A stretch of 61,793 bases of DNA, taken from a virus (taxonomy: Duplodnaviria > Caudoviricetes). Every line of letters begins with the position of its first letter. Position 1 is the first letter of the stretch. Below the pieces are notes generated by a model. It saw only the letters and a list, made by a program, of their open reading frames with translations. It did no database searches and had not been told where the DNA came from. The position numbers were made by a program, and so were the translations under genes. Shown piece by piece: positions 38,834-61,793 of the stretch. The DNA lies in the IMG/VR virus record IMGVR_UViG_3300042914_004341, positions 1 to 61,793 of that record, one strand, 5' to 3'.

Positions 38834-38851
38834 GGCTATTTCTCCGGTGTG

Positions 38852-41191: not shown

Positions 41192-41195
41192 GTGG

Positions 41196-42250: not shown

Positions 42251-42407
42251 TCCTTTGCAAAAATAGCCAGGCTGTCGTAGCTAAACTGGTACAGCCGAAT
42301 TCTCCACAAACTTTTACGGCCACCCTTAGAGATTCTCGGCAGGCTGCTAAGGTGGAAGAATGTGTCCAGTACACGCCTGTTTTGTTTGCGCCGTCTGGTA
42401 AGTGCCT

Positions 42408-46605: not shown

Positions 46606-46785
46606 GCCATTTCTCCTAGTACAAATAAGCGTCTTTTTTAAGGCATCCAGCCCGAGTAGCCATGCCCCCTTTTTTGTGGCATTGGTATATCCCGATTGCA
46701 ACTTTAACGCTTGCGGCTAGGGCTGCCACAATAATAAGCCAGTGAATTAAATTTGCTATCTGTCTACCCGTCATTTTGAATTTCT

Positions 46786-47082
46786 TCAATTCAATACCTC
46801 GTCTGTCAAGTCATCGGCGTCTTCCGCTTCCGCATCCGGGGCGCTGTGTCCCAGATTCTCCAGGCACACCTTGTACATGACATTCGGGTCAATGCCAATG
46901 TTAATGCAGTTCTTGATGATAGTGCGCATGGACGCACCCATCACGTGCCGCACATCCATGCCCCCGTCCGCGTACTCCTGCAGCAGCGCGGCCAAGTCCA
47001 TGGACAGATTGGTCAGGTTTTCAATTTCCTTTGCCCTGTTGCGCCGCTTTCCGCCGCCGTCAATTTTTGTGAGTTTGGTCAT
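46786..47082 (-). CDS. Hypothetical protein
   Basis: 98-aa ORF with acidic tail. Confidence 0.6.
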   Translation of the reverse strand: MTKLTKIDGGGKRRNRAKEIENLTNLSMDLAALLQEYADGGMDVRHVMGASMRTIIKNCINIGIDPNVMYKVCLENLGHSAPDAEAEDADDLTDEVLN

Positions 47083-47293
47083 CTGTGTTTGCCTTTCCTG
47101 TTTTCGTGGCCGTCACAACTTCGGGCCACGTTGCATAGTCTGTTTCGTCATCCAGGAACAGTCTTACTTGGTCCCGGAACACTGCCCAGCCCATCTCGCC
47201 GGCCAACCCTGGCGAGCCCTCGTGGTACAGGAGCAGGAGATTCTCGGCCTCTTCGAGCCGGCGTTTCATGCGAATCAGCGGATGCTCTTTCAT
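47060..47293 (-). CDS. Hypothetical protein
   Basis: Overlapping operon arrangement. Confidence 0.55.
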   Translation of the reverse strand: MKEHPLIRMKRRLEEAENLLLLYHEGSPGLAGEMGWAVFRDQVRLFLDDETDYATWPEVVTATKTGKANTDDQTHKN

Positions 47294-47486
47294 GGCTTAC
47301 TTCCTATCATGCAGGCCGCAACCCGGTGGTCAGTCACGTGGCCAGGGTAATCTCGGCTCACCTTTTCAACACACTGCAAGCCCTTCTGTACACAAGCGTT
47401 TCGTTTATCTTCCCAGATGCCATACTGTGTGTTCGGTTGGGAAGGGAAAGACGTCGCACAGTAAAGCATTATCCATCCGACTACAC

Positions 47487-47858
47487 TCATGGGTTCCAAT
47501 CCTCCGGCGGCTTGCTGTCGAGGTGGTCGCAGACCGCTTGCCATACTATTACTTGTCCACCAGTTTCTGAAAACACATTTTCAGCAAGCTCTGATGTGTC
47601 CCTAAGCCAAGCCAAATCCCGCTCAAGCTCGGCGATGCGCTTCGCCATGGCACACACATCATCCGTTGCGCACTCACAGCGGTAAGGTGCGGATGCAAGA
47701 ATGTGTTCAAGCCGCCCAATCCTAGATTGGGCTGTGAGAAGTTCCACTTCGAGCTGGCGGGCGAATCCTGTGATTGATTTATGATGTGGGGACTCAACGT
47801 CATCATACAAATCAATGCAAATAGCATCCGTCCGCGGCGTTGGTATTTGGTCCGTCAT
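47487..47858 (-). CDS. Hypothetical phage protein
   Basis: TPRTDA...ARQLE.EL pattern; RBS GGAGG. Confidence 0.6.
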   Translation of the reverse strand: MTDQIPTPRTDAICIDLYDDVESPHHKSITGFARQLEVELLTAQSRIGRLEHILASAPYRCECATDDVCAMAKRIAELERDLAWLRDTSELAENVFSETGGQVIVWQAVCDHLDSKPPEDWNP

Positions 47859-48238
47859 GCTTGCCTCCCTTTCAGTATGCATTTCACATGCGGCACCCTA
47901 CTGGTGGGCTCGTAGTGTGTCAACCCATTGTCTTTGTAGTCCGCCACCGTCGCGCCGCTCCGCAAAGGCTTGACGAAGGATACCCGCCAGTATTTGGCAG
48001 TGACCGTGCCATGCTGGCTCCCATAACTAGGCCATCCGCCGTACAGCCCTGTGTTATGTCCGCTACTATACTCGTATTCCCTTGTGCAGCTTACTACCTC
48101 CACAAGCTGACCATCCTCCAGTAGTAGGCTGTCGCCGGCTGCTACTAAGGACATATCCACCGTGGCCGGCGGGAGGGTAGCGCGGTCTTTTGCCTGCACC
48201 GAACTCCAGCCCTTTGGGGTTTCACGCACTTCGGTCAT
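47855..48238 (-). CDS. SH3/KOW-like paralog-family protein
   Basis: TVDMSLVAAGDSLLLEDGQLVEVV. Confidence 0.6.
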   Translation of the reverse strand: MTEVRETPKGWSSVQAKDRATLPPATVDMSLVAAGDSLLLEDGQLVEVVSCTREYEYSSGHNTGLYGGWPSYGSQHGTVTAKYWRVSFVKPLRSGATVADYKDNGLTHYEPTSRVPHVKCILKGRQA

Positions 48239-48240
48239 AA

Positions 48241-48477
48241 TTAGTCCCCCCAGCGCACGTACGTGCCGTCTACTTCGTACCCTAACCCTTCTAAATAATC
48301 CTTATTCTCCCTATACATCGTCTCCGCAATAAACCAAGTTTCCCCTTTTGATGCTTGGTTACGAATACCTTCTAGAATCCTGGCCCTTGTGAAAGGAACC
48401 CTTACTTGTATCCTTTCCTGCTCAGCTGCTTCTTTTGCTTTTGCAGTCAGACTAGCTGCTTCTTTCGCACTCAACAT
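48241..48477 (-). CDS. Hypothetical protein
   Basis: RBS GGAGG; operon context. Confidence 0.6.
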   Translation of the reverse strand: MLSAKEAASLTAKAKEAAEQERIQVRVPFTRARILEGIRNQASKGETWFIAETMYRENKDYLEGLGYEVDGTYVRWGD

Positions 48478-48854
48478 ACTTCTGCCTCCAGGTCTTCAAA
48501 GTCCATGGCATCTTCTTCCCATGGGCAAATCTCTACTATTTCGCCAGTGTGTAAATTCCTGGCCGCGGCGTACGGGCCCCCGAGACTTTCCCACCACTGG
48601 CCATCCCACAAGGCAACCATGCTGCGTTCGCCCCATTGCAGCCGGCCCTCCACAATTTGCTGCGCGTGGAGAATTTCGTGCTGACCGTGTAAGTCCAGTG
48701 CCAACAGGTCCCCGCGGATTGCCGTCAGGGGTACGCGGACCCTGCCTTCACATACGATGTACGCCAGAGGGACATCTGCCCCTTCAACCCAGTCTACGCC
48801 AGTGAAGCCGCGGCGGCGTGCCATATCTTCCAGTGCTTCCTTTGGGCTAAGCAT
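48471..48854 (-). CDS. Hypothetical protein
   Basis: RBS GGAGG; ARNLHTGEIVEI resembles an HU-like arm segment. Confidence 0.55.
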   Translation of the reverse strand: MLSPKEALEDMARRRGFTGVDWVEGADVPLAYIVCEGRVRVPLTAIRGDLLALDLHGQHEILHAQQIVEGRLQWGERSMVALWDGQWWESLGGPYAAARNLHTGEIVEICPWEEDAMDFEDLEAEVC

Positions 48855-49170
48855 CGCGGCCTCCGTCTTTGTTCCCCGAGGGGAAGCGTGCGTCGTACTC
48901 AGCTACTAGCTTAAGCAGTTCACTACCGAGCGCACTATATCGGGCTGTTTCGACTATTCGTCGCGCCAACGCCACCTCATCTCGCAGCTCAATCAACTTC
49001 TGTCCTTCGTCGATAGCGACAACCAGAGCGGCATCACGTTCCTCGCGCACGCGGGCGAGTTCGTCTTCTAGGGTACGAATTCGCGCCATTGCCTTGTCAA
49101 ATGGCGTTGGGGTTTCGTCCGCATAAAAGTCAGTCTCTTTGGGTAGGGTATTTAGCTTCAGTTCAGTCAT
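48847..49170 (-). CDS. Coiled-coil hypothetical protein
   Basis: ATG at 49170 after GGAG. Confidence 0.55.
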   Translation of the reverse strand: MTELKLNTLPKETDFYADETPTPFDKAMARIRTLEDELARVREERDAALVVAIDEGQKLIELRDEVALARRIVETARYSALGSELLKLVAEYDARFPSGNKDGGRDA

Positions 49171-49359
49171 TGTGCAGCTCTCCCTCTTTAGGGGCAAGTT
49201 GGAGGTGTCTTTGGTTATGAATAGTAGTTTCACGAGTCGGAAATAGTACATCTAAAATCCAGCGCGGCGTCCCCAAAAGCATATTCTCAGCTATTTCCTT
49301 GGAATTTTTATCATGCTCTTGTTCCGCCGCATCCGGCCTGTCAAGCGCGGCGTCGGTGT

Positions 49360-49692
49360 TCATGCTTTCTCCTTTGTTTCCGAGTGCACGTCCACTCGTC
49401 CTTGTGCCCTCGTCGATGCATGTGCATCAAGGGCCGCTTGTGCTCGGCGGGCTTCGTCCCATGCCGCGGCCCAAGCCGATGTCCACGCAAGGTCAACCAC
49501 TGGCGCCATTGAGAGATGGATGAGTTGTCGATGAGCCGCCAATACGTCCGCCTCCAGGATGGCCGTTTGCGGGTCGTGGAAGTCTGTGAAGTCGTACCAA
49601 CGCCCGTCCGCACCCCAGCCAACAGCTTGGTTTTCTGCGTACGAGACGGCAGCCTTCAGCGCCAACTCCCGCTTTCTTTCCTCGTGTCTCAT
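49360..49692 (-). CDS. Hypothetical protein
   Basis: ATG 49692 immediately after a hairpin module that supplies GGAGAGG. Confidence 0.55.
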   Translation of the reverse strand: MRHEERKRELALKAAVSYAENQAVGWGADGRWYDFTDFHDPQTAILEADVLAAHRQLIHLSMAPVVDLAWTSAWAAAWDEARRAQAALDAHASTRAQGRVDVHSETKEKA

Positions 49693-49937
49693 CCACCTCT
49701 CCCTTCGGTCGTGTTTCCTTCGGAAACCCCTCCCATATCGCGCAGTTGTTGCAGGGCTGCCCATATCTCGTTTTCTTCCTTTTTTGTGAAAGGTGAGTTT
49801 GCGTATCGCTCCGCAGCACGGGCCACACGGATGAGGGCGGGGAGTGCTTTCTGTGCGAGCTGGGCGTGTCGGTCTCCCCATGGGTCCTCGTCGTCGCTTG
49901 TGTACTGTTCCAACTCGTCCAGGATTTTCATGGTCAC
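49689..49937 (-). CDS. Hypothetical protein
   Basis: 82 aa; C-terminus runs through a hairpin module. Confidence 0.55.
   Translation of the reverse strand: MTMKILDELEQYTSDDEDPWGDRHAQLAQKALPALIRVARAAERYANSPFTKKEENEIWAALQQLRDMGGVSEGNTTEGRGG
49699..49727 (-). repeat. Hairpin module
   Basis: Minus strand GTTTCC-GAA-GGAAAC then CGA-CC-GAA-GG-GAG. Confidence 0.8.
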
Positions 49938-50092
49938 TCAATCACCACCCTTTCTTCGACTGCATACCACTGCGGTTCGTCAGGTTCTGTGTATGCCGCC
50001 GCCATATTTTCAGCCTGTTCTCTGTTCGCGTATACGCCCATGAGATAGAGCGGCTCGTACTGCTCGTGACACCAAACAAGGTAGACTTTCAC
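49934..50092 (-). CDS. Small phage protein (52 aa)
   Basis: Not in the track; MKVYLV...GVYANREQAE...; RBS GGAGG; GTGA overlaps at both ends. Confidence 0.65.
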   Translation of the reverse strand: MKVYLVWCHEQYEPLYLMGVYANREQAENMAAAYTEPDEPQWYAVEERVVIE

Positions 50093-50439
50093 CCCTCCTC
50101 CCTTTCCGTGCCCGGCACCATCACAGAGCCTTCGGGTTGGCTGCCTACTCTGTGGGTTTCTTTGAAGTACCTATTAGTGCTAGACGGCCTGACCCACCAG
50201 CCGATAGATGCCGCCCATTCCGGCGTCCCATCCGGCACAAGATAATCGGCTACGCGCTTGGGTTCCTGGACAATTTCCCAGTCGTCAGTTATCAAAAGGT
50301 AACCGCCGAATGTGACTCTGCGGCCTGTAGATAGCCATGCATCCCCACCGACAAAAGATACCCACTTAGCAGAGTCCCACGCTACGCGCCTTACCTTTTT
50401 GCCTTCGCGCAACGCTGGTAAAACTTCCTCGAATTTCAT
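50089..50439 (-). CDS. Tad2/DUF2829-like protein with a C-terminal extension
   Basis: MKFEEVLPALREGKKVRRVAW...LLITDDWEIV matches the family pattern. Confidence 0.7.
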   Translation of the reverse strand: MKFEEVLPALREGKKVRRVAWDSAKWVSFVGGDAWLSTGRRVTFGGYLLITDDWEIVQEPKRVADYLVPDGTPEWAASIGWWVRPSSTNRYFKETHRVGSQPEGSVMVPGTEREEG

Positions 50440-50657
50440 TCATCCCTCCACACTCTGACAAAGAACTTGATGAGTTCAACAACTAGGATGACCGGTAACA
50501 CAATGTAAAGAAAGCTGAAGACAATGAAGGCGGCTATAAATGCTTTCAAACTTTCCCTCGCAGAGGCTTGCTCTCCTGCCGCAGAGACCCCGACTATGAA
50601 CCCAACGATGCTACACAAAATTTGCATGCCTAAGTAAAATAGAAGCGCACCGTGCAT
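50436..50657 (-). CDS. Small two-TM membrane protein
   Basis: Two hydrophobic helices. Confidence 0.65.
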   Translation of the reverse strand: MHGALLFYLGMQILCSIVGFIVGVSAAGEQASARESLKAFIAAFIVFSFLYIVLPVILVVELIKFFVRVWRDE

Positions 50658-50660
50658 GGC

Positions 50661-51032
50661 TTACTCCTCCTTCCGGCCCGCCGATGCCGCTGTGCTGAAC
50701 CCGTCAGGGTATCGTGCTGCCAGCTTGTCCCGAAGCACGCCCACGACTTCGGGCAGCGTCGTGTCCAGGGCCATGGCCGCGAGCTGTACATAATAAAGCA
50801 CGTCGCCGAGTTCTTTGATGGCCTTGTCCCTATCAAACACGCGCCCTTGCTCGTACGTCTTCTTGACCAAGTCCACAAACTCGCCGGCTTCGCCGGCCAG
50901 TCCCAGGGCACTGGACATGCGCATGCGCTCGCGGTCCGCCTCCAGGGGCCCATTCACGAGTGTGGAGTGGGTGCGGAGGACGACATCATGCAACTCGTAC
51001 AGTGCTGTGGAGAGGGGTAGTGCTGCTGTCAT
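50661..51032 (-). CDS. MazG-like nucleotide pyrophosphohydrolase
   Basis: LGLAGEAGE..D.VKK...KELGDVLYY...KL.ARYPDGF. Confidence 0.9.
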   Translation of the reverse strand: MTAALPLSTALYELHDVVLRTHSTLVNGPLEADRERMRMSSALGLAGEAGEFVDLVKKTYEQGRVFDRDKAIKELGDVLYYVQLAAMALDTTLPEVVGVLRDKLAARYPDGFSTAASAGRKEE

Positions 51033-51215
51033 TTGGGTTTCTCCTGCTTGGGTTTGAGGAAGGCGTCCATCTCATCGCGCATAGTCTGTTGCATGTCAAG
51101 TCTGTCTTGCCGTGCCTCGCGCGTTTCCAGTTCCCGGTCCTGGAACACTTCGGCCATGTCCGGGAAAAGTCCCAGGGCCTCCATTTCCACATGCCATTTC
51201 CAGAATCCTCGGAAG

Positions 51216-51869
51216 TCAAACACCTTCTTCCACCTCCTCTTCAACTTCATAGGACCCGCGCAATTCCACACAGGCGATGCGGTCGGACCCATAATCTGCT
51301 GCCCACTCATCCGCTTTTTCCTTGGTGGGGAAGTACAGATGACCCGTCGAGGGGCCCACGTTCACCCACCGCACAACCTCGACCGTCCGCTTCACTTTGC
51401 GCTTGGGTTTTTCGGTGCCTAGGTAAGTGATGAGGTCGTTGGGTCTGTCCCCATACATGTAGTGTTTCCCTTCTGCCGTCCAACCAGTATCCTTGGTCTT
51501 ATCTATGTGGTTTAGGAAACCCCAGACAGTATATCCCCAGCCTAGTCTAGGTGGGATAATCGCAATTATTTCCGCCAGCCCCCCCTCCCGCGTGCGGTAC
51601 CAGCCCAGTTTGCCTTCTGCTAGGGCTTGTGCTGCGGGGACCTCGGTTGCTTGCTGTTCCATGGGTTTCTCCTTTTTGTGGATGGATACGATGTCAAAAT
51701 ATGCATGATTTAGGTTCAACACTTTTTGAAAAAGTGAGCCATTTTTATCAACAAATGACAGTGCGTGGGTTCCATCATCAAGCGACGAGCATTCCACAAC
51801 TACAAGTAAATTTCCATCCTGTGTTTTAACCATATCGCCGACTTCCAGCTTGCTGAGGTCTACTGTCAT
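51216..51869 (-). CDS. Two-module SH3-like paralog-family protein
   Basis: MTVDLSKLEVGDMV..QDG...DIVSI, then internal AAGGAG-ATG and a YRTREG...WTAEG...DLI module. Confidence 0.6.
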   Translation of the reverse strand: MTVDLSKLEVGDMVKTQDGNLLVVVECSSLDDGTHALSFVDKNGSLFQKVLNLNHAYFDIVSIHKKEKPMEQQATEVPAAQALAEGKLGWYRTREGGLAEIIAIIPPRLGWGYTVWGFLNHIDKTKDTGWTAEGKHYMYGDRPNDLITYLGTEKPKRKVKRTVEVVRWVNVGPSTGHLYFPTKEKADEWAADYGSDRIACVELRGSYEVEEEVEEGV

Positions 51870-52267
51870 TGCTTCACCTCCATTGTGTCTTCCTTACGAG
51901 GAAAAAGGGACATCACGTATTCCCGCAAAGCCCCTTTGAACAGGAACTTGTCCAGCACAAACACAACCACAAGGAAGAAAACAACCTGTGTAGGCGAGGG
52001 GAGAAAGGACTTCACATCTTCGGCAAACGACTTGATATTCATATCGGATTTCCCTTCTAGTGCTTTTGTGAGTGCATCCATCTCTGCGTCTCTGTCCGCA
52101 GCCGTTTTGAACTGCAAAATGAACTTAGAATCAGCGAATTCTATGTGGTAAGGTGTTTTGGTTGTTGCTGCATCCGAAGTGCTTGGCCAAAAATGTGTCA
52201 CACTGTCTAGTATGACTACCTCGTTTGGTATTGAGAACTGTGTTTTGTAAACTTTCCTTGCTGTCAT
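51866..52267 (-). CDS. Hypothetical protein with a C-terminal TM segment
   Basis: VVFFLVVVFVL segment; AT-rich. Confidence 0.55.
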   Translation of the reverse strand: MTARKVYKTQFSIPNEVVILDSVTHFWPSTSDAATTKTPYHIEFADSKFILQFKTAADRDAEMDALTKALEGKSDMNIKSFAEDVKSFLPSPTQVVFFLVVVFVLDKFLFKGALREYVMSLFPRKEDTMEVKQ

Positions 52268-52339
52268 TTGGTTCCCTAAAATAGAAGGGCACGCCTAGCT
52301 AGCGTGCCCCGTGGGGGTTATGTACTGTCCCGCAAGGGC

Positions 52340-52783
52340 TTACTTGGCCTTGGGCTTCCACTTGTTCACGAAGTAAGCCTTGCCCTCGTGCTCGCCCACG
52401 AAGTCTACAATCTCTCCGCCCTTCTTCTCAAGGAAGCTGACGGTCTCGAACTTGCCCTTCTCATCTTCCTCGCTGGCCTTGACGCGCTTCTTGAGGACGT
52501 TCTTGCCGTCTCGGTCAACTGTGACAAAGAACTTCACCAGTGGGTTCTTCTTAATCTCGGTGTCGTCTTCCTCGCGTGGCAGCATCTCGGCACCGCCCAG
52601 GGCATTGGCATCCGTGCCGAAGCTGGTTGGGAACAGGAATGCAAGCGTCTGGTACACGCGCTTGGACTTGTCTTCTTCCTGTGGGTTGATGCACACGGAC
52701 AGCGTGTGCGTGGGGGTCTTGCCGGGTTTGTACTTCTTGGTGGAAGAAGAAGGGTTGGACTTAGAGACTGATGCGATGGCCAT
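52340..52783 (-). CDS. Hypothetical protein (possible ssDNA-binding/recombination accessory)
   Basis: RBS AAGGAG; strong codon bias; follows the exonuclease; function by context only. Confidence 0.5.
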   Translation of the reverse strand: MAIASVSKSNPSSSTKKYKPGKTPTHTLSVCINPQEEDKSKRVYQTLAFLFPTSFGTDANALGGAEMLPREEDDTEIKKNPLVKFFVTVDRDGKNVLKKRVKASEEDEKGKFETVSFLEKKGGEIVDFVGEHEGKAYFVNKWKPKAK

Positions 52784-52864
52784 TCGGAGGCTCCTTGTTT
52801 GGGGTACGCCCATGCTGGACGCACCAGTGATGTAACTCGTGTCGGTGTGCGAAGTCAAGCGGGA

Positions 52865-53974
52865 TTATTCCTGCGCCTTCTCTTTGGCCCAGGCATTTAC
52901 CATGCCAAGCCACTTTTGCGTGGAAGTTTCGCCCTGCCCATGCGCACGCTCACACACGGCTTGCAACGCACAATACTGACATTCGCGCCACTTTGCTTCA
53001 TTGCCAAACACATCGAGCGTGGCGGGTTCCGGCGGGAGTACGTCGGTTTCCACCGCATTGGCTGCGGTCTCGTAGTACTCCTCGATACCTTCATCCGTCA
53101 CCAGCGTTTTCCGCGCAGCCTCCTCGAAGTTCAGGTCCGAGGGGGCAATCCACAAACGCTTGGTCCCGTCTTCCTCGTCCTCCCAGCTGAGCGTGAAGGT
53201 GTGGACGAACGGAAGCACGCGGAAGATTTGCTGGCTCGGTGGCTGGGCCGGCCTCCCCGGCTTCACGTTTCCGTTCTTGTACACCTTCTCAGGCGTGGCC
53301 TCTTTACCGTCATCCAACTTGTAGTCGCACTTGTCCGAGTGCCTTTCCCCGTAACGTGGGAAGTGACGCTGGACCCAGGAGAACTGGTCCTGGTTGCCCA
53401 TCACATGAAAGTTGACACGGTTTGTGTACGCAAGTGTGAAAGGTACTCCTAGAACCATGCTGTAGTGCGCGGCCTGACAAACGTGTGCAGTTTTGGGCTT
53501 GTCCTGGAGGACGTCGCGGGCCGTCCACATGCTACTCACTTGCTTGAGTTCCAAGCCGTGCTGCGGCAAGCCATCCGCGCCCGCCAGCACAATGTCTGGC
53601 CTGCCCGTCACGGGCGTGCCGTTGCGCGTGGCCCAGTACGTGGGCACATCCTCCTCACGCAGGAGCACGCCCTTACCCTGCCCTGTCCAGCTGCGTTCAA
53701 GCCATGTCGCCCAGCTGTCCTCGTTCGACAGCCCGAGTTGGAACATAAGTGACTTGGAGCCATAGTCCTCGTCGTCGGGGACTTCCGTGCCGAGCATACG
53801 GAGCAGGGCCTTACGTGCGCATCCGCCGATACTACGCAGGCCCTCGTCCGTCTGCACCAGACTGCCGGAGTTACCCCCGCGCAGCACTCCCACTTTCTCC
53901 GCTTCCTTGCCGTCCTTCTCCGCCTTTTCCAGCAGGGCCCCCTCCAGTAGGAGCCCCTTCACGTCGATTTGCAT
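52865..53974 (-). CDS. Cas4-like PD-(D/E)xK exonuclease
   Basis: GGCARK, GRPDIV, LELK, QAAHY, CQYC.....C (1+3 Cys Fe-S pattern). Confidence 0.82.
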   Translation of the reverse strand: MQIDVKGLLLEGALLEKAEKDGKEAEKVGVLRGGNSGSLVQTDEGLRSIGGCARKALLRMLGTEVPDDEDYGSKSLMFQLGLSNEDSWATWLERSWTGQGKGVLLREEDVPTYWATRNGTPVTGRPDIVLAGADGLPQHGLELKQVSSMWTARDVLQDKPKTAHVCQAAHYSMVLGVPFTLAYTNRVNFHVMGNQDQFSWVQRHFPRYGERHSDKCDYKLDDGKEATPEKVYKNGNVKPGRPAQPPSQQIFRVLPFVHTFTLSWEDEEDGTKRLWIAPSDLNFEEAARKTLVTDEGIEEYYETAANAVETDVLPPEPATLDVFGNEAKWRECQYCALQAVCERAHGQGETSTQKWLGMVNAWAKEKAQE

Positions 53975-54260
53975 TGCCCTGTTCCCTTTTGCGTTTGCGG
54001 TACTCCCGCATGTGTTCGTTACACTTGTCCCTGTTGGCAGTCCACCACGCCCGCTTGTTCGCTAGGCGTTCCTCGTCCCTGCCATCCACAAAGCGGGCCT
54101 GCTTTTGCCTGGCTGCCTCGCAAGTCTTGCAACGCGGCTTGCGCCCGTTGCACCCTTGTTGTTGCACGTGGAAGGCTTCCCAGGGCAGGTAACCCTGGCA
54201 ACCTTTGCACACTCTGCCCCAGGGGTCATCTTTTATCTGCAAGGATTGTTTCCTCCGCAA
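53871..54260 (-). CDS. Zinc-finger/helical protein resembling an HNH endonuclease N-terminus without a nuclease domain
   Basis: VCKGC...AF...G....CKTC plus WWTANRDK.NE.MREYR, as in the HNH1-3 N-termini. Confidence 0.6.
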   Translation of the reverse strand: MRRKQSLQIKDDPWGRVCKGCQGYLPWEAFHVQQQGCNGRKPRCKTCEAARQKQARFVDGRDEERLANKRAWWTANRDKCNEHMREYRKRKREQGNANRREGAPTGGGPAGKGGEGRQGSGESGSAARG

Positions 54261-54876
54261 TTTGCATCACCGTGGGCAGGGCCCGGCGGAGTACATCCCG
54301 CACGGCCTCTGCTACCAGTCTGTGTTCAAGCTGTGTACCATTGCCCAGACGTGTCTGGAGGTAGTGCAGCCAACTCCGGACCGAGCCGGTCATGTACAGC
54401 CTAGACTGGACCATGCCTTCTGGGAGCACTGCCCGGGCACACTCCTTGGCAATCCCCTTGCGTAGTGCCTCCCTGTAAGTGTTCATGGCAGCGTCGTATG
54501 CCCGCATCTGGGCCATGCTGAACCAGTCCTGGGTGTCCTTCGGCATGTCTGCCACGCTGTTTTGTCTGTTCTTGGTGTCCTGTCTGCGGGCCTGGACCTT
54601 GATGGGCTCATCCCTAACTTGTTCGTAACGCTGGCTGAACTCCGAGAAAGTAAAGCTACGGTGCCTAAGCAGCTGCCTCGCGATGGCCCTCGAAGTCTCA
54701 ATTTCGAGGGTGGCATAGCCGTGCTCAAACACGGACCAGTGGCCATGCTTTAAACAGTAGGTGAGCAGCTTCTTAAACTCGGGGTTGGTTTGGTTGGGAC
54801 TGGAAACGCGTGCCACGTAGGCCATGGTCTTTTCTGCATCGGGCGTAATGGCAATCAGGGTCGCCTTCGGTTCCAT
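54226..54876 (-). CDS. thyX: Flavin-dependent thymidylate synthase
   Basis: HWSVFEH, RHRSFTFSEFSQRY, KECARAVLP, TQLEHR motifs. Confidence 0.96.
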   Translation of the reverse strand: MEPKATLIAITPDAEKTMAYVARVSSPNQTNPEFKKLLTYCLKHGHWSVFEHGYATLEIETSRAIARQLLRHRSFTFSEFSQRYEQVRDEPIKVQARRQDTKNRQNSVADMPKDTQDWFSMAQMRAYDAAMNTYREALRKGIAKECARAVLPEGMVQSRLYMTGSVRSWLHYLQTRLGNGTQLEHRLVAEAVRDVLRRALPTVMQIAEETILADKR

Positions 54877-54885
54877 CGGGCCTCC

Positions 54886-55260
54886 TCATTCGTGAATAAG
54901 ATTCCCCCGCACATAGAGTAGGAACACGCGCTTGCCTCGCTCCTCGCCGATGATAATGAAGTGCGGGATGTCACGCTTGCGTGCGGGGCGCAGGAAAATC
55001 TCAAGGTCGGACAACTTGTACGCCTCTGCGGATACGTAGTGTGGCTGCATGCCCGTCCTGGGGGGCCACTCCTCTGCTCGGTGAGCGAAGATGCATGCCC
55101 CCACGGCCCTAGAATCCGGGGTCACGGGCAGGATTCTTTCCGCCTTCGGCATCTTGTGCCGGCTCTTGGGGGCTGACTTTGGTCTGGCCATAGGCAGGTC
55201 CAGGCAGCCAGTGCAATCAGTATCAGGGCAATCGCAGGAAGCAGGGGGACGACGAGCCAT
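54886..55260 (-). CDS. Hypothetical protein with an N-terminal Cys cluster
   Basis: CDCPDTDCTGC; RBS GGGAG. Confidence 0.55.
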   Translation of the reverse strand: MARRPPASCDCPDTDCTGCLDLPMARPKSAPKSRHKMPKAERILPVTPDSRAVGACIFAHRAEEWPPRTGMQPHYVSAEAYKLSDLEIFLRPARKRDIPHFIIIGEERGKRVFLLYVRGNLIHE

Positions 55261-55317
55261 GGTGGAAACTCCCTTCGAGTTCGCACCATAGCACGCGTCG
55301 GCCCTGCCTGTCTCGGG

Positions 55318-55944
55318 CTATTTCCCATTGAAGTCAAAGTCCTTGGGCAGGAAAGACTTGCGGGTCTGGGTCAGCGTGACCCTGCCTACCGTGGCGGGAA
55401 AAAGTGTGGTGAACTTGTCCCCTGTGAAGCGGGTTTCCTCGAACATGTGGAGGACCTCACAAGAGGGCTTCGGGAGTTGGGCCCACTTTGTACGCAACGG
55501 GACGCAGGACGTAGGCTGCATGGGCCCCAAGCCCTGTCGCACATCTGCCGCCATGTCCTCTGAAGTCTGCATGGCCCGCTGCGTTAGTTGGTAAAAGTCC
55601 GCCCCAGAAAACAGCATGTCCGCAGGGAGCCTTGCGGCAGCCGAGTGAAAAATGAACTCACTGTCCCGGGCCACTACGATGCGGTGGCACCCAGGGAGCA
55701 CAGACTGCAAGGCCGCGGAGTATGCCCTCGAAACCATACACGTAGCCTGGACGTTCTGGAGGGCCTGCCCAATAAGCCTGCCGAGGTCGATAACACCGCC
55801 CCGAGAGTGTACCACGGCGACGACGTGCACGCGTTCGCCCGCCCGTTTGGCGGCCTCGGCCTGGGCCAATGCGAGCAGGAATTCTTGCAGGCCGGGGGCC
55901 CCCGGTTCAATAGCCATGGTCAGGTGGAGAAGAAAGAACTTCAT
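55318..55944 (-). CDS. ClpP-like serine protease homologue
   Basis: VHSRGGVI, AYSAA (catalytic Ser), FIFH motifs. Confidence 0.65.
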   Translation of the reverse strand: MKFFLLHLTMAIEPGAPGLQEFLLALAQAEAAKRAGERVHVVAVVHSRGGVIDLGRLIGQALQNVQATCMVSRAYSAALQSVLPGCHRIVVARDSEFIFHSAAARLPADMLFSGADFYQLTQRAMQTSEDMAADVRQGLGPMQPTSCVPLRTKWAQLPKPSCEVLHMFEETRFTGDKFTTLFPATVGRVTLTQTRKSFLPKDFDFNGK

Positions 55945-55946
55945 AC

Positions 55947-56318
55947 TTAGCACCTCTCTAGTTTGGGAAGGGAGGACCACGGTCTGGCCTTGCTTCCGGT
56001 TAAAGCCTCAAACGCGCCGGGCGTCAAGTCCAAACCACGCTTGCCATGGTAGCGTGGGTTTCCCTTGTCATTGACCCATATGGCCACACAAGGGCCCTCG
56101 CCCGCCCTAAGGAAAAGCCAGTGCGGCCTGACCCTATACCGCGCGGGCATAAACACCGCCGCCGTGGGCCGGCGCGGGTCAAACGTCTCGCCCGATGCAG
56201 TCTGTGCACCATACGCACACGGGCGCGGCGCGTGGGTGTCCCCACACGCCACCTCGCCCAGGCCGTACACAGAAGCGGGCAGTGTGATGGCCTGCGCGGC
56301 AAAGATGAAAAAGCCCAT
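55947..56318 (-). CDS. RlpA-like double-psi beta-barrel protein
   Basis: TASGETFDP...TAA, VNDKG, LDLTPGAFEAL. Confidence 0.82.
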   Translation of the reverse strand: MGFFIFAAQAITLPASVYGLGEVACGDTHAPRPCAYGAQTASGETFDPRRPTAAVFMPARYRVRPHWLFLRAGEGPCVAIWVNDKGNPRYHGKRGLDLTPGAFEALTGSKARPWSSLPKLERC

Positions 56319-56410
56319 AAGGTTCCTCCAGAAATGGGCGCGCACAACCGGGCACACAAACACGGAACCCTCTACTGAGCGGCCCCGCGGCCGGTGCCTG
56401 CGTGCTTTGC

Positions 56411-57232
56411 TTAGTTTCTAGGTACAACGTACAGCGTGGCCGTAATGGCCGTGCCGCCCGCCTGCAACGTGCTGTCGAGCCCGCCGCCTGCCACACTCAC
56501 GGTCACGTTTGCCTCCTGCGCCAAGACAACATCACCCAGCACGGGGACCAGGGAACCAAGGTCGCAAGCGTACATACCAACACGGGCACCTTTGAGGGTG
56601 AACCCCGTACCGGGCATTGTGGCGTTGTCCCCGTTGCCTTGGTAGCAGTAGCGAACCGAACCAAGCTGGATGTATGCCCACCCCGTTCCCGCCGCGCCCG
56701 ATGCTAACGGGAGGGTCTGCGGCAACGTCCACAGCCCGGCCACGGCGGGGCCAACGTAGCTGTCCCAGTACGACGGGCCGTAGGTGCGGGATGCCGCGAG
56801 CACGAGTGTCTGAGGCGCACCCCAAGGTGCGGCTCCGTCCTGTCCGTCCACTCCGTCCTGCCCTGCCGGGCCCGCTACCCCGGGCAACCCCTGCGGACCA
56901 GCTGGGCCGGCCTCGCCTGTCGCGCCCGTCTCGCCGGGCACGCCCGTTGACCCTGGCAACCCTTGCGGGCCCGCTTCCCCTGCCTGCCCGTCCTTGCCGA
57001 GCTGTCCCGGTGAGCCATCTGTCCCAGGCACACCCTGCGGGCCGGGTGTTCCCCGGGGGCCGGCCACACCGGGCCGGCCGTCCTTGCCGTCGCTGCCGTC
57101 GTCGGGGTCCGCGGCGTCACGCAGGAATCCGCACCCGCCAGCGGCCAGCGTGAGCAAAGAGAAAGTTACGAAGCGGGTGAGGTTCCGGAGGAACACGACG
57201 ACCGCAGGGAGGAGTAGGTGTATCCTTACCAT
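56411..57232 (-). CDS. Collagen-like lipoprotein
   Basis: RBS AGGAG; lipobox-like LAAGGC; about 30 Gly-X-Y triplets; C-terminal beta domain. Confidence 0.8.
57179..57231. repeat. Long dispersed repeat copy 3 (inverted), in frame after the ATG of the collagen-like gene
   Basis: Reverse complement is 52/53 identical to 600-652. Confidence 0.95.
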
Positions 57233-57250
57233 ATCTGTAATCTCCTAGTG

Positions 57251-57658
57251 TTAGGTGTTCTGAGATGTCGTGTTGGCTTGCTGCGATGCCTCGTACTCTT
57301 CCCTGGCCCGGGCGTGAATCTCCTCCTTGCTGGCCGGGCCGTACTTGGGACGCCGCCCTGGCCCTGTCCGCTTCCGCACTACCAAATTTGTGAAGTGGAA
57401 GGCTTCGCCAAGCGGAACCACGGCGGGCCATCCGGGTGGGGTCTCGCGGAATTCCACCACATACTTGCCCCGCTTCGGCCCGATGAATCCCTCCCCGTAA
57501 TCCCGCCGGCACTGGGCGTCTAGCGCAAGCACGAGCCCGCGCAAAGGGATGCCGAGGTAGCCCACAGGACTGCGACCGCCCCAACGGTAACGCAGCATGT
57601 TGAACACACTGTGGCGGGCGAGTTGGAATTCCCTTTCCGTGAAAGCCGGGTTATTCAT
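57251..57658 (-). CDS. Hypothetical protein
   Basis: RBS GGAGG before ATG 57658. Confidence 0.55.
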   Translation of the reverse strand: MNNPAFTEREFQLARHSVFNMLRYRWGGRSPVGYLGIPLRGLVLALDAQCRRDYGEGFIGPKRGKYVVEFRETPPGWPAVVPLGEAFHFTNLVVRKRTGPGRRPKYGPASKEEIHARAREEYEASQQANTTSQNT

Positions 57659-57952
57659 TGTGCCTCCCATTTCTTGGCAATGCTTGCAAACCACTTGATG
57701 GAACGCCAGTCCATTACATAGGTGTCCCCGCGCCGTTGCAGGTAGACCACGGCTGCGTTGTACTGGGTATCATCCATAGCTTACTCCTTTCCTTTCAGCT
57801 ATTTAACCAGTGCTTTAACCCTGCTAATTGATTCCTGGATGCGCCGTTGGCGTAGCTCAAAGGAATCCCGCGCAGCCTCATCCTGCGCAGGCATCCCCTC
57901 GCGCCTTCCCCGTGCACGTTTCCAAGTCTCGTAATCGAAAACTTTGGCACCT

Positions 57953-58501
57953 TCAAAATCCTTGGAGTCTTTCGTCCCGCTCATGTGCTTCCTTTCTGGC
58001 CCGCGCAAACAGGCTCGGAGTTGGGTCCGTTACGGCCACGGGATGCATAAGCCGTTCCGCATTGGCGGGGGTTTCTGCCTCGTGCCGCTGGAATCTCACG
58101 CAGTGTTGCAACTCATGCTCGAACACCCACGCATGTGTTGCAGGGTCCATGCCAGTCTGCAGCGTGATGGTCCGCCAAAGCTGCGAACCCTCCCATTGGA
58201 TGCTGCAGGTACCAAGAGCCAGCCTTTCTTCAGCAAGTGTCTCGGAGTAGCGCACGTGGAGAGGAGACAAGACGTCACACGGCTCCCGGCATGTGTCAAA
58301 AAACTGTTCAATTTGTGGCATCAGCTCGACAGGGGCACGCACGCTGTGGCTCACCTCCGTGCCGCACGCGGTTACGGCCAGCGCCGCAGCCAAGCACACC
58401 AGGGTGGCAGCGCGGCCCGGACGTGTGGGCGTGCCACTGCCGGGCGTGCCCTTGCCCTTGAGGGCGGCCAGAATCGCGGCCAAGTCTGGTAAGTCCTGCA
58501 T
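57953..58501 (-). CDS. Metzincin-like metallopeptidase lipoprotein
   Basis: Lipobox LAVTAC; HELQHC....H plus LMHP Met-turn. Confidence 0.7.
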   Translation of the reverse strand: MQDLPDLAAILAALKGKGTPGSGTPTRPGRAATLVCLAAALAVTACGTEVSHSVRAPVELMPQIEQFFDTCREPCDVLSPLHVRYSETLAEERLALGTCSIQWEGSQLWRTITLQTGMDPATHAWVFEHELQHCVRFQRHEAETPANAERLMHPVAVTDPTPSLFARARKEAHERDERLQGF

Positions 58502-60235
58502 GTTTGCCTCCTTCATTCCAGGCCGCGACACTGGCGAACTTCCTCAGCGTGCTTGACGCACGATGCGTAACGGTCCGCGTCCAGTGTCTCGCTGTGCTTG
58601 TACACTTCGACGACCTTGTTTGTGGCGAACGCGCCCGCAATGGCAATCACTACGTAGGTGATGAGAATTTCCATGGCGTGATTCCTCAGTGCTTGGTTTT
58701 GCGGAACACAACACGGGCCGCAATGTAGCTTCCCACAAAGACGCCCACGGCCAGGGCCACGGGAAGAAAGCCGAGAAACATCACGGTGAATCCAGGTTCG
58801 TTCATGTTAGGCTCCAATTTGAAAAGCTGGTTTGTTTGTGAACAGGTAGATGCAAAGGCCCTGGGAATTGAGTGCAGATTCTTCCGCGCCGATATCCCAG
58901 GTCTCGCGGATGCAGGCCACAATTGCCTCAATGCCTGCGTGCCCAATCAAGTCCACGGGCATACGGACGTGCTCCCGTCCGTCTATGAAAATCACAACTT
59001 GTGAAACTCGCATGGTCCCCTCACACATATATGTAGATAGTCTCGAACCCCTACGCCTCGGCCCGCTCAATTGCCCGGTCCAGTTCCCACTGTTCCGGTG
59101 CAAGGAGGTGGATGCCGACGTGGCGGGTCGTCTCGGGACTGCCAAGCCGGAACGTGATGGCCGTGTGAGCTTCGCAGAGGCGACGCAGGTAGAGTTCGCG
59201 AATGTACTTTGCAAAGGAGAATTTATTCCGTGACATCGTGGGTTCCTCCTCAGAATGTTTGTGTGCCCCCAAAGAAAGGGCCCCGCGCATCGACAGACAC
59301 GCGGGGCCAACATATTGGAGGATTACAATGCCCCCTGCCGCTGGGCTCTGGTGTTTCGTCCTGCAAAGGACTCGTCAGCGCCCCAACGGCAGGGGCGGAC
59401 ACCTGTATGCGACAAAAGACACAAGTCAGGAAACCCAGTCAAGGAAACGTATTGTCCAGCTTCTGGAATCTTTCCAGGTGCGCCGTGTGTTCCACTCCAT
59501 CATCGCCTACAAAAACACAAAGCGGAGACATGGGCAGGATTCGGGGAATTATCATCACCGTGTAGGTTTTCCCTGCCGTCAAGCAATCCGTCATGTTATG
59601 AGGTGACACGCATTGTGTCTTAAATTTTTGACCTACTGCAAGGGTTTCTGAAATGGTCCAAGTGCCGTGTAAAGAAAGAGTGTACATACATCCCCCCAAG
59701 GTGTTTCAGCCTAATTACTCTCGCTCCGATTCGGCCGCATCTTCCGCTTCCGAACCAAAGCCCAACTCCCGCGCAAGTTCGATAGTGCGCTCCAGTGCTT
59801 GTTCATACTTCAGCGCGTCCTGGATTCTCCCTGCAAGCCGTGCCTCTGTGGCAGCACGCGCGTACGCGCGGATATTTAGCATACACAAAGTCTCGGGTGA
59901 CGCATCACGTCTCACACATGCCTCCTTAGTGTTTCGGCCTTCGATTAGGCCCTCGTCAGCACAGGAACAAATCCCGTGGACACCATCGCTGCCTCTTCCA
60001 GATGGTAAGCGCGTCCCGGTCACCACAATTGGCTGGCGGGCGGCGGGGGTCGGGAGGTGCCGCCTCGTGCTTGCGCATGGGCAGGGCTTTCCGGTCCGCT
60101 TGCCTTTGGATGGATTCCCGTCCGCTGGCTCTTACTTACTCTTCGGCTGATTCGGTGCGGAACTTTAGTCCGCTGGTCTCCTCAGTGCCGGCCTCACCGG
60201 CAGACGCCCATCTGCGAGGGCGTTTCGACCTTGCG

Positions 60236-60469
60236 TCACTTCCGAAGGTGCTCATCCCCGCGAAACTTTTGCCGCCCACCAAACTTCACCGTAGTGAAAA
60301 GCTCGTCCGCACTCATCCCGGCGAAAGCCTCCCGTGTCCAGGCGCGGGCCCAGCGTTTCCACCGCTCGGAGGCCGGGCCCTGAAGCACTGCCACGGTCAG
60401 GCTGCCCACTTGAACACAATGCATCTCGCCGAACCGTCCCTCATCTGTCGTCTTAATGGTCACTCTCAT
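60236..60469 (-). CDS. Small early hypothetical protein
   Basis: RBS GGAGG before ATG 60469. Confidence 0.55.
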   Translation of the reverse strand: MRVTIKTTDEGRFGEMHCVQVGSLTVAVLQGPASERWKRWARAWTREAFAGMSADELFTTVKFGGRQKFRGDEHLRK

Positions 60470-60516
60470 GGTGTGTTCCTCCGTGCGGGCTGTGCCCGCG
60501 AGGGTTGGTCTCGACC

Positions 60517-60720
60517 TCACCTGTACCAGCACTCGAACACAGGGTTGCCGCAAGGGTGCGGGGTCAGTTCCAGGGCCCGCAGGCACCAGCGCACCGCGCC
60601 GCCCAGCCCATCGTCCATGTTCCCAAAATCCCCCCAGAGGGCGGCCAGGGCCCGCACGTCCGCGGGTTCCAGGTCAGTCTTGCAGGCCAGGGCAGCGTGG
60701 AGCGTCGTGGTCTTGAACAT
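60517..60720 (-). CDS. Small early hypothetical protein
   Basis: AAGGAG RBS, downstream of a sigma28-type promoter. Confidence 0.65.
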   Translation of the reverse strand: MFKTTTLHAALACKTDLEPADVRALAALWGDFGNMDDGLGGAVRWCLRALELTPHPCGNPVFECWYR

Positions 60721-60754
60721 CTCGGTCTCCTTTGTTCGCATCAGGTTCTCTTCT

Positions 60755-60782
60755 TTATCGGAGCCTGGGGGAGGAACTTGAG
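60755..60782 (-). promoter_or_regulatory. sigma28 (FliA)-type promoter
   Basis: CTCAAG-14 nt-TCCGATAA. Confidence 0.75.
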
Positions 60783-60789
60783 CACTTTT

Positions 60790-60975
60790 TTATTCCAACC
60801 CCACCAGCTCAATGGCCGTGTACCAGTGCTCGTTCGATTCCCCATCCAGCTCCACCCCAGCCTCCACCGCCAGCCCTCTCGCCACCTCCACCACCATCCT
60901 GTACTGCTCCATCGTGGCCACCACCCCAAAGTACCGCTGGAACCGGGCCAGCTCGGTCTGTTCTTTCCTGTTCAT
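60790..60975 (-). CDS. Small early hypothetical protein
   Basis: GAGGAG RBS, downstream of a sigma28-type promoter. Confidence 0.65.
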   Translation of the reverse strand: MNRKEQTELARFQRYFGVVATMEQYRMVVEVARGLAVEAGVELDGESNEHWYTAIELVGLE

Positions 60976-61009
60976 CCTGGTCTCCTCTGTTTGCATCGGG
61001 GTCTCTTTC

Positions 61010-61037
61010 TTATCGGAGCCTGGGAGGGAAACTTGAG
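61010..61037 (-). promoter_or_regulatory. sigma28 (FliA)-type promoter
   Basis: CTCAAG-14 nt-TCCGATAA; direct repeat of the 60755-60782 region. Confidence 0.75.
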
Positions 61038-61075
61038 AGTTTTTTTTTCGGCTCCGGTCATTTCCTTCATAAAAC

Positions 61076-61103
61076 TTATCGACGGGTGCAAGAAAAACCT
61101 TAG
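61076..61103 (-). promoter_or_regulatory. sigma28 (FliA)-type promoter
   Basis: CTAAGG-14 nt-GTCGATAA. Confidence 0.65.
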
Positions 61104-61280
61104 CTCGGGGGGGCATCTTTTTTTGCAACGTGTTGGAATCTGGCCTGGAAAAGTTTCGAGGGAGGGCGGACGGGGGGCGGCAGGCCGGGTTTTGGCACTT
61201 TGTCAGATATGCGTGCGTGTGCGCGCGCGTTGCACGGAGCGTGCCGGTGCAGCAGGGCAGCATGGGTCAGCATGAAAGAG

Positions 61281-61308
61281 CTAAAGGCATGGGCAGGCGT
61301 GCCGATAA
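61281..61308 (+). promoter_or_regulatory. sigma28 (FliA)-type promoter, consensus match
   Basis: CTAAAG-14 nt-GCCGATAA (= TAAA-N15-GCCGATAA). Confidence 0.85.
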
Positions 61309-61336
61309 AGGAAAGCATAAGGACAAGGAGGCGACG

Positions 61337-61501
61337 ATGGACAAGGCACTTTTGGTAATGCTGGTGTGTGCGTTTGGGTTCGGCGCGGCTGCGGCGGGAG
61401 GGCATGGGACGCTTGCGTTCTGGCTGTTCCTGGGGGCGTGCTCGGGTCTGATGGTGTACACGGAGAAGGCGGCGGAAGAAAAGGCTAAGAGAAAAGAGTG
61501 A
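61337..61501 (+). CDS. Small two-TM membrane protein
   Basis: RBS AAGGAGG; MDKALLVMLVCAFGFG...LAFWLFLGACSGLMVY. Confidence 0.7.
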   Translation: MDKALLVMLVCAFGFGAAAAGGHGTLAFWLFLGACSGLMVYTEKAAEEKAKRKE

Positions 61502-61515
61502 GTTGCAAGAAAGTG

Positions 61516-61543
61516 CTCAAGGGATTCGACAGGGCGCCGATGA
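61516..61543 (+). promoter_or_regulatory. sigma28 (FliA)-type promoter
   Basis: CTCAAG-14 nt-GCCGATGA, followed by AAGGAGG-ATG at 61570. Confidence 0.75.
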
Positions 61544-61793
61544 GAAGGGGAAGGGAAAAGGAGGCGAAGATGAAGGGAAGGCAAAGGCGACGACGGGTCA
61601 GGCGGCGAAGGTCGGGCGGGATGGGCCGGCGAGATGGGGTTGGGTCAGCCTCTCGCCTGCGCGTGCCCACGGCGTGCGAATCGCGCGGGCCCAAGTGTGG
61701 GCGGGCGGGGGGGCAAGCGCGGGAACTTGCCCCTAAACAACCGGGGCCGTTTTTCTAAAAATGACCCCCCCTTATGGCAGGCCCAGGAAGCCC

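Follow-up and report, generated by a model that had tools for sequence, protein, structure and literature searches.

Phages of the textbook kind start transcription from promoters read with the host's housekeeping sigma factor, or bring a polymerase or sigma factor of their own. The early promoters of T7-like phages, read with the host's primary sigma factor, are clustered at the genome end; lambdoid phages have divergent early promoters; and SPO1 (gp28), T4 (gp55) and phiEco32 (gp36) supply sigma factors that have promoter classes to themselves. The control region considered here lies near the right-hand end of a virus genome, IMG/VR record IMGVR_UViG_3300042914_004341 (Caudoviricetes), and holds five promoter-like sites that resemble those of sigma-28, the flagellar sigma factor FliA, which has the homologues SigD of Bacillus and WhiG of Streptomyces. 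From these sites, host RNA polymerase loaded with FliA may start the first genes of the phage in both directions. The whole record, 61,793 base pairs (bp) long, is called the window below.

The closest described relatives of these sites are the class 3 flagellar promoters, read by FliA in E. coli, Salmonella and Pseudomonas. The two groups agree in both boxes, in the T-rich stretch that extends the -35 box and in the exact spacing; the phage sites differ in that they precede replication genes and small genes of no recognizable family, rather than flagellar or chemotaxis genes, and in that their -35 box is often CTCAAG (three of five in the window). The FliA consensus is given as TAAAGTTT-N11-GCCGATAA (PMC7286023); compared with the consensus as quoted there, the G that follows the -10 box directly in the relatives of this phage (frequency 0.80) is extra. 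In Bdellovibrio bacteriovorus, 92 of 140 mapped promoters had an attack-phase FliA-type form, TTAAG-N16-CCGATA (PMC3627812). There, as here, the sigma-28-type motif reaches beyond flagellar genes and acts as the signal of a whole programme, but those promoters belong to a bacterium and these to a phage, and no observation connects the phage with that host. Phage genes are likewise wired to a regulator of the host's motile state and cell cycle in the CtrA-box phages of Alphaproteobacteria, possibly in connection with adsorption to flagella or pili (PMC9437464); the box in that case is the binding site of a response regulator, however, and not a promoter class, and the host group is another one.

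Set beside the T7-like and lambdoid phages, the layout is familiar: apparently host-read promoters with short leaders, some in tandem and some back to back, are grouped where the programme begins. The class is not familiar, being that of an alternative sigma factor (sigma-28), and one relative (G002) keeps a sigma-70 version in the same place. Like the promoters that depend on SPO1 gp28, T4 gp55 and phiEco32 gp36, the window's class departs from the housekeeping consensus; unlike them, it comes without any sigma gene that we could find in the window, and its motif belongs to a conserved sigma factor of hosts rather than being peculiar to the phage. Host-read phage promoters are known as a kind, then, and what would be new is the flagellar sigma class. 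A literature search, which did not extend to supplementary files, found no published phage early promoters of the sigma-28 class.

Five sites that match the sigma-28 class

The structural genes of the phage occupy the plus strand from position 1 to ~36.5 kilobases (kb); the minus-strand arm, ~36.5–61 kb, carries a lysis cassette, a replication and nucleotide module and a set of small family-less genes, the last being closest to the point from which transcription diverges. Here the sequence-only reading had reported five sites of the form CT(A/C)A(A/G)G-N14-(G/T)(C/T)CGAT(A/G)A, and both strands of the entire record contain exactly these five: P-L1 (61076–61103), P-L2 (61010–61037) and P-L3 (60755–60782) on the minus strand, and P-R1 (61281–61308) and P-R2 (61516–61543) on the plus strand. 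The same pattern read backwards has no match anywhere in the record, and CCGATAA occurs three times in the window, each time within one of the five sites. A divergence zone of 177 bp (61104–61280) separates the back-to-back promoters, and from it the minus-strand trio faces left and the plus-strand pair faces right; this outward orientation, too, is as first described, and it agrees with that of the downstream genes at all five. So does the claim that four sites directly precede a ribosome-binding site and start codon hold: their -10 boxes end 26–34 nucleotides (nt) upstream of an ATG equipped with GGAG or GAGG. The fifth, P-L1, stands in tandem with P-L2, which follows 66 nt downstream.

The -35 box is CTCAAG in three sites and CTAAAG and CTAAGG in one each, never more than one mismatch from TAAA; the -10 box is TCCGATAA in two and GCCGATAA, GTCGATAA and GCCGATGA in the others, with the CGAT core in all five and again at most one mismatch from GCCGATAA. 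Canonical spacing, TAAA-N15-GCCGATAA (equivalent to TAAAGTTT-N11-GCCGATAA), is exact in all five, and a T-rich extension, TT(C/T), follows the -35 box in three. Judged by sequence, the two boxes and the distance between them are those of the sigma-28 (FliA/SigD/WhiG) promoter class.

A scan with a position matrix against shuffled controls had been proposed as a check, and it places the sites far above the shuffles. With a 34-column matrix trained on 26 sites from relatives only, the window left out, six matches of at least 15 bits were found in the window, against a mean of 0.00 in 20 dinucleotide shuffles and one in the reversed sequence. With a two-block version, in which the spacing may vary by one base either way, there were six of at least 16 bits, all within 60139–61544, against a shuffle mean of 0.24 and maximum of 2 (n = 200). 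The excess of sites is far beyond chance. The sixth of these matches is a weaker site that had also been pointed out, and that is borne out at 21.3 bits on the two-block matrix: candidate P-L4 (60139–60168, minus strand; CTAAAGTTC...GCCGAAGAG), with a spacing one base longer than canonical.

Conservation in relatives

Searches for related loci with single proteins (a 182-aa early-arm protein, and the terminase) confirmed nothing, and alignments were used instead. Alignment of portal homologues fetched 80 viral loci and five contigs binned into metagenome-assembled genomes (MAGs). Of the viral loci, one is a fragment, 99% identical, that ends short of the promoter region; none of the others exceeds 49% identity in the portal. 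A search of 50,697 deposited phage records gave neither near-identical DNA nor a tblastn match to the portal. Eight complete relatives, 58–63 kb long, were compared with the window. Gene order is conserved among them, and 16 gene clusters are common to all nine genomes.

Six of the eight complete relatives carry the motif. Their portals are only 42–47% identical to that of the window, and their guanine-plus-cytosine (GC) content is 49–57%. At 18 bits or more there are six matches in G008, four in G007, two each in G006, G005 and G001, and one in G003, against shuffle means of 0.00–0.05. At 15 bits or more there are 19, all but two of them on the replication-arm strand, and all but two of the 19 sites stand 16–100 nt before a start codon with a Shine-Dalgarno sequence. 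Of the two structural-strand matches, that in G003 stands near the divergent region, and we read it as corresponding to the two rightward sites of the window; that in G001 lies 171 nt before a large structural gene. The motif is kept on the replication-arm strand even in distant relatives of 38–57% GC, the relatives as a whole ranging from 38 to 60%.

The consensus of the relatives' sites, CTAAAGTTT-N11-GCCGATAAG, has the base of the FliA consensus as majority base at all 16 positions. In the matrix, the -35 frequencies are T.95, A.62, A.91, A.95 and G.91, and the three positions after TAAAG, which lie outside the seed pattern, have T at 0.62, 0.80 and 0.70, matching the canonical extended -35 box. 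A second and independent set of relatives, 80 metagenome contigs fetched by alignment of the terminase, contains 23 distinct sites that score 18 bits or more, of which 19 had not been seen in the first set; 19 of the 23 lie on the strand opposite the terminase; the reversed control gives six. One of these contigs, L350, has the divergent layout of the window. A variant -10 box (TCGAGAAG) considered in G004 proved to be an Ile-Glu-Lys codon pattern inside genes, and was set aside.

Sigma-70 promoters and a possible change of class

At the homologous divergent position, G002 has a perfect (12/12) sigma-70 promoter, TTGACA-16-TG-TATAAT, directed into the replication arm, and back to back with it a 10/12 sigma-70 promoter directed the other way. 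Of the sigma-70 sites of at least 11/12 in this genome, six of eight are on the replication strand, compared with three of 16 in the motif-bearing relatives (Fisher p 0.021). As far as sequence can tell, this fits a swap of promoter class that followed a change of host sigma factor. That the same core genes have promoters of different host types in the same places argues against a reader encoded by a core gene of the phage. As a separate matter, GGGGGCGAT occurs 16 times on both strands of G002 (L111–L113; 41% GC), against 0.08 expected, with flanks that are not conserved.

The sequence-only reading had assigned the late genes to sigma-70 promoters. Thirteen of the 16 sigma-70 sites of at least 11/12 in the motif-bearing relatives are on the structural strand (binomial p 0.011), so the family lends the proposed division of labour some support. 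In the window itself the late class is weak: no site reaches 11/12, the best being 10/12. Sigma-70-like matches number 13 against 5.5 ± 2.3 expected in 1–20000, two against 1.8 ± 1.5 in 20001–36500, five against 6.6 ± 2.3 in 36501–56000 (best site 10/12), and none against 1.2 ± 1.2 in 56000–61793, the part that includes the divergent sites. The proposed programme as a whole, a start with the host's motility sigma factor and then a switch to sigma-70, is supported in part: as regards promoter class, divergent position and conservation it holds up, and in the late class of the window it is weak.

Arrays in other viruses

The signal is not confined to this family. At least 120 IMG/VR stretches contain the exact canonical consensus, and among the matches listed 11 of 80 have two to four exact copies; read backwards, the consensus is found in 40 stretches, never in more than one copy each. 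When one mismatch is allowed, one-strand arrays appear on contigs mostly unrelated to the family, with ten sites in 5 kb on L149, eight on L164 and six on L154. L149 is part of a real phage fragment with RecE/RecT and a ParB-methyltransferase. In another of the array-bearing viruses, G013, tblastn with an ATPase gave matches scattered over Arthrobacter, Streptococcus and Flavobacterium phages, which tell nothing of its host. The motif is thus present in the ~60-kb family and in several unrelated lineages of 28–60% GC, in which arrays reach ten consensus sites in 5 kb. None of 13 such array-bearing records has a match to Sigma70_r2. Loci with dense one-strand arrays of the exact sigma-28 consensus, on contigs mostly unrelated to the family of the window, include L239:458-5037(+); the ten sites in 5 kb of a phage fragment with RecE/RecT are an example.

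What reads the sites

We think it somewhat probable that the sites are genuine sigma-28-class promoters, read by host RNA polymerase with the flagellar sigma factor. No sigma gene of the phage was found, and host sigma factor use is therefore the best reading. Models of sigma regions 2 and 4 (Sigma70_r2, r4 and r4_2: PF04542, PF04545, PF08281) and of FliA_WhiG (TIGR02479) returned no candidate at E ≤ 10 from the six-frame translation of the window, controls being positive. Nor was a sigma domain found in Pfam scans of 68 open reading frames (ORFs) of the window, and an unfiltered hidden Markov model built from seven sigma factors, together with phmmer, reached no better than E 1.5 over 1160 six-frame window segments. 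The r2, r4 and FliA_WhiG searches detected a sigma factor in none of the eight complete relatives. No FlgM-like anti-sigma factor was found in the window. A T7-type RNA polymerase model did not match it either, and was likewise silent on its controls. The conserved 1888-aa protein of the virion arm was considered as a virion RNA polymerase and rejected, its 130 invariant columns containing no DxDGD-like motif.

A number of observations weigh against this reading. The reader, host sigma-28, is named from sequence alone. P-L2 and P-L3 share an 81-nt direct repeat, 79% identical, and so are not independent of one another; the spacers of the other three sites are unrelated. Two of the complete relatives, G002 and G004, are without the motif, and a third, G003, has one site only. 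In G008, a 12/12 sigma-70 promoter at 673(-) stands at the head of the replication arm, upstream of the sigma-28-type sites, which therefore need not fire first there. Five of the 13 array-bearing records have weak region-4-like helix-turn-helix (HTH) matches. Finally, two of the MAG-binned relatives encode a compact sigma-70-family protein with regions 2 and 4: 185 aa in G009:C138 (L362:11596-12153(+)) and 170 aa in G010:C22 (L367:4451-4963(-)). In both, its gene sits between those of a helicase and a PD-(D/E)XK nuclease, and both genomes also have three to four sigma-28-like sites. The helicase and nuclease genes of the window are directly adjacent, nothing being encoded between them, and tblastn finds no homologue of the compact protein there. 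This family is able to carry a sigma factor, by these signs; the present phage has no recognizable one, and that of its relatives is not of the FliA type.

The alternative that fares best is that the phage supplies the reader itself, be it a sigma factor, a diverged sigma-like protein or an injected one, and that FliA has no part in the matter. We consider this unlikely. The compact sigma proteins lend it substance; in G010:C22, three sigma-28-like sites lie downstream of the sigma gene on the same strand; the sigma-70 promoter upstream of the sites in G008 makes a cascade possible; and G015, an unrelated array-bearing phage, encodes a 212-aa protein with tandem region-4-like HTH domains, although that protein is not a FliA. 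What counts the other way is, first, that no sigma-like segment was detected by any search in the window, or in any of the eight complete relatives, and that the five sites are the only promoter-like signals heading the two divergent units of the window: a factor made from these units could therefore not start them. Second, the relatives' sigma factor scores best with RpoH models (101 and 86 bits, against 60 and 54 for the FliA model). Third, the only gene that tracks the motif is a PD-(D/E)XK nuclease-like gene (39165–39668), which was rejected as a candidate reader, the comparison resting on just two motif-less genomes, and the 1888-aa virion-arm protein has no DxDGD-type motif. And it seems improbable that an unrelated protein would converge on 16 consensus positions and their spacing in lineages of 28–60% GC.

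There is also the alternative that the sites are read both by sigma-28 and by some other host holoenzyme, or that they serve a few accessory genes only, the main programme having its start elsewhere; in either event FliA would modulate infection rather than gate it. A hairpin and T-tract (59308–59279) does part the promoter-proximal small genes from those for replication, the next sigma-28-type site comes only at 52040, and in G005 an 11/12 sigma-70 site stands 72 nt upstream of a sigma-28-type site. Against this, no other promoter-like signal was found for the replication arm of the window, sigma-70-like matches in 36501–56000 being no more frequent than expected, and we rate the arrangement as quite improbable. 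That the boxes are instead operators or activator sites, alike to sigma-28 promoters by coincidence, is very improbable indeed: clustering in a divergent control region, the usual place of phage operators, and the inclusion of two sites in a longer repeat of 81 nt would suit regulator binding, but the boxes are asymmetric and always oriented as the downstream gene is, the spacing is fixed while the spacer sequence is unconserved, the relatives' sites are found along the whole replication arm before individual genes, and the majority base is that of a known promoter class at all 16 positions.

Under reading by host FliA, the one we prefer, we infer that these divergent units are expressed first in infection, and that infection is tied to FliA-active, motile, flagellated cells.

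Host

The sequence-only reading had suggested a Bdellovibrionota-like host. That is a guess: the Bdellovibrio form accounts for the motif no better than does the general FliA consensus. The five MAG-binned relatives have five unrelated labels, namely Proteobacteria, Nanoarchaeia, Saprospiraceae, Oligoflexales and Thiomargarita. Those whose contigs are 47–59 kb long look like whole phage genomes binned by chance. The one Oligoflexales bin contains a full FliA gene (276 bits), which says little about the host.

Anatomy of the divergent units

In the scheme that we propose, the host's FliA-loaded RNA polymerase would start the phage's first genes both ways, from back-to-back promoters firing outward from the 177-bp zone, and the transcripts would have leaders of ~19–27 nt, each with a Shine-Dalgarno sequence. 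In the middle of the zone, at 61207–61229, is a strictly alternating purine-pyrimidine run of 23 nt (ATATGCGTGCGTGTGCGCGCGCG), which could form Z-DNA and respond to supercoiling.

To the left, the tandem pair P-L1 and P-L2 would drive a 61-aa gene (60790–60975, minus strand) with a strong coding signal in GC at the third codon position. P-L1 is CTAAGG-N14-GTCGATAA followed by G (22.9 bits on the relatives' matrix, 23.2 on the two-block matrix), and P-L2, at 30.4 bits on the two-block matrix, is CTCAAG-N14-TCCGATAA, also followed by G; the ATG at 60975, with the Shine-Dalgarno sequence GAGGAG, comes 34 nt after the end of its -10 box. The 61-aa protein is without family, its Pfam search giving DUF2934 only, at E 0.018. 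P-L3 (CTCAAG-N14-TCCGATAA; 25.3 bits, two-block), with 34 nt from the end of its -10 box to the ATG at 60720, would drive the next two minus-strand genes, both family-less. The first, of 67 aa (60517–60720; no Pfam match), has GC of 0.65/0.53/0.85 at codon positions 1/2/3; the second, of 77 aa (60236–60469), is preceded by a stable hairpin at 60478–60503 (-18.3 kcal/mol, z -2.98). The weaker P-L4 may follow, missing the T of CGAT from its -10 box and set where the coding signal is weak; after it comes a probable 82-aa gene (59439–59687, leftward). The first leftward unit probably extends to the hairpin and T-tract in front of the replication module (59279–59308, minus strand), which has 13 pairs, ten of them G-C, followed by CTTTCTTTGG, and which comes directly before the next gene. 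From its form, this element would end or attenuate the unit.

Further along the arm there is a weak seventh candidate at 52040–52068 on the minus strand (CAAAAG...TCCGATATG; 15.9 bits on the 34-column matrix, 14.4 on the two-block), ~215 nt past a strong minus-strand terminator at 52310–52286. A promoter of this type is found directly 3' of the exonuclease gene in G008, G007 and G005, and the 52040 match of the window is in the corresponding part of the arm.

To the right, P-R1 (CTAAAG-N14-GCCGATAA; 19.9 bits, two-block) would drive a 54-aa hydrophobic protein (61337–61501, plus strand; moderate coding signal, no Pfam match) that is probably, to go by its sequence, located in the membrane. The ATG at 61337, with the Shine-Dalgarno sequence AAGGAGG, comes 28 nt after the end of the -10 box. 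P-R2 (CTCAAG-N14-GCCGATGA; 16.4 bits, two-block) would drive a short Arg-rich ORF or else an RNA: the ATG at 61570, again with AAGGAGG, comes 26 nt after the end of its -10 box, and the 62-codon frame that begins there (61570–61758, plus strand) has Shine-Dalgarno and ATG and no codon-position GC signal, and may be a non-coding transcript instead. A hairpin and U-run near the right end (~61729–61755) was considered as a terminator and discarded as weak (z -0.45).

Transcription from P-R2 probably crosses the ends of the record, passes an HNH-like gene and stops at a strong intrinsic terminator at 1114–1134 on the plus strand (-20.8 kcal/mol, z -2.98; none of 200 shuffles folds as well). In the relative G007, a homologue of the window gene 67–570 adjoins the divergent promoter, so the record is probably continuous across its ends, and given such continuity the rightward unit would run on to this terminator. 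In two stretches that flank the control region, 571–1789 and ~59300–60235, the normal codon-position GC pattern is absent in every frame; these may be non-coding, comprising an origin, RNAs or remnants of terminal repeats.

Implications

If the reading is right, infection by this phage depends on the motility state of the host, which bears on which cells in a population are productive hosts. Expression would be confined to motile, FliA-active cells, the very cells that a flagellum-binding phage meets, and flagellotropic phages might in this way match gene expression to adsorption. The phage would also be free to shut down the sigma-70-dependent transcription of its host without harm to itself. 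The same signal is seen in many unrelated viral contigs, and the result would therefore generalize. Tentatively, and with rather more doubt than conviction, we suggest that entry by way of the flagellar sigma factor is a widespread and hitherto undescribed strategy of uncultured phages, and that relatives on other hosts swap to sigma-70 instead. A sigma-28-type signal could also serve to mark phages of motile hosts by sequence.

Other features of the genome

The record is a complete IMG/VR virus entry, 59.6% GC, classed as linear and rated 100% complete by CheckV. Its structural arm includes a P22-type portal gene (7102–9090), a conserved, putative terminase of 488 aa and large virion proteins. 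On the minus-strand arm, the lysis cassette consists of an M15_4 endolysin (37478–37939, minus strand) and a holin (E 1.3e-10), and the replication and nucleotide module encodes a family-A DNA polymerase, a helicase, a RuvC-like resolvase and a Cas4/RecE-like exonuclease, together with ThyX, a MazZ-like diphosphohydrolase and MazG. In the window, no integrase was found, a tRNA scan gave no genes, and an Rfam scan at gathering thresholds gave no matches.

The structural arm has a repeated motif of its own, different from the promoter-like sites and absent from the sequence-only reading. Counted with up to two mismatches, copies of GTAGGTATATCCTTAC, most of them followed by CAA in a motif of 16–22 nt, are found on the plus strand at 2417–2432, 6742–6757, 14421–14436, 31202–31217, 32715–32730 and 57214–57229, and on the minus strand at 602–617 and 21239–21254; the 9-mer GTAGGTATA occurs seven times against 0.05 expected. 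Three copies are intergenic and begin 45–62 nt (and end 29–46 nt) before the start codons of structural genes, two are within genes, in different reading frames, and a (C/G)TTA(C/G)-like element follows ~22–24 nt downstream. GTAGGTATATCCTTAC could be a late promoter, an operator or other regulator site, or an RNA signal. It was not found in the relatives examined, and the over-represented 9-mers of those relatives were rejected as counterparts, extended conservation being absent. A 53-nt element, 98% identical in its three copies (600–652, 21237–21289 and 57179–57231), holds GTAGGTATATCCTTAC in inverted form. The copy at 57179–57231 overlaps the annotated start of the collagen-like gene (ATG at 57232), and that at 21237–21289 is within a gap of 208 nt before the true start of the 1888-aa gene, placed at ~21419 because homologues align from residue 62.

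Several other features deserve mention. The collagen-repeat protein (56411–57232, minus strand; Pfam Collagen, E 8e-17), encoded in the replication/early arm, has a lipoprotein-like signal sequence ending in LAAGGC, and in relatives the same part of the genome has 18-nt periodic repeats. The MazZ-like dATP/dGTP diphosphohydrolase domain, ThyX and the MazG domain occur together in the window (42408–43022 and 54226–54876, both minus strand, and one more ORF), which hints at editing of the nucleotide pool or at a modified base. The family-A DNA polymerase ORF (43273–46701, minus strand) is 1142 aa long and matches polymerase in two separate stretches, with a weak LAGLIDADG match, below the cut-off, at residues 776–843 (E 0.0013), and may contain an intein or a homing-endonuclease insertion. 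One ORF has a Tad2-like (Thoeris anti-defence 2) domain (E 2.2e-6), and another encodes a zinc-ribbon protein. Two HNH/endonuclease VII-like genes have a 270-nt segment in common, 72% identical (3434–3703 and 12227–12496), and one of the two contains four tandem repeats in a 45-nt phase (3105–3329).

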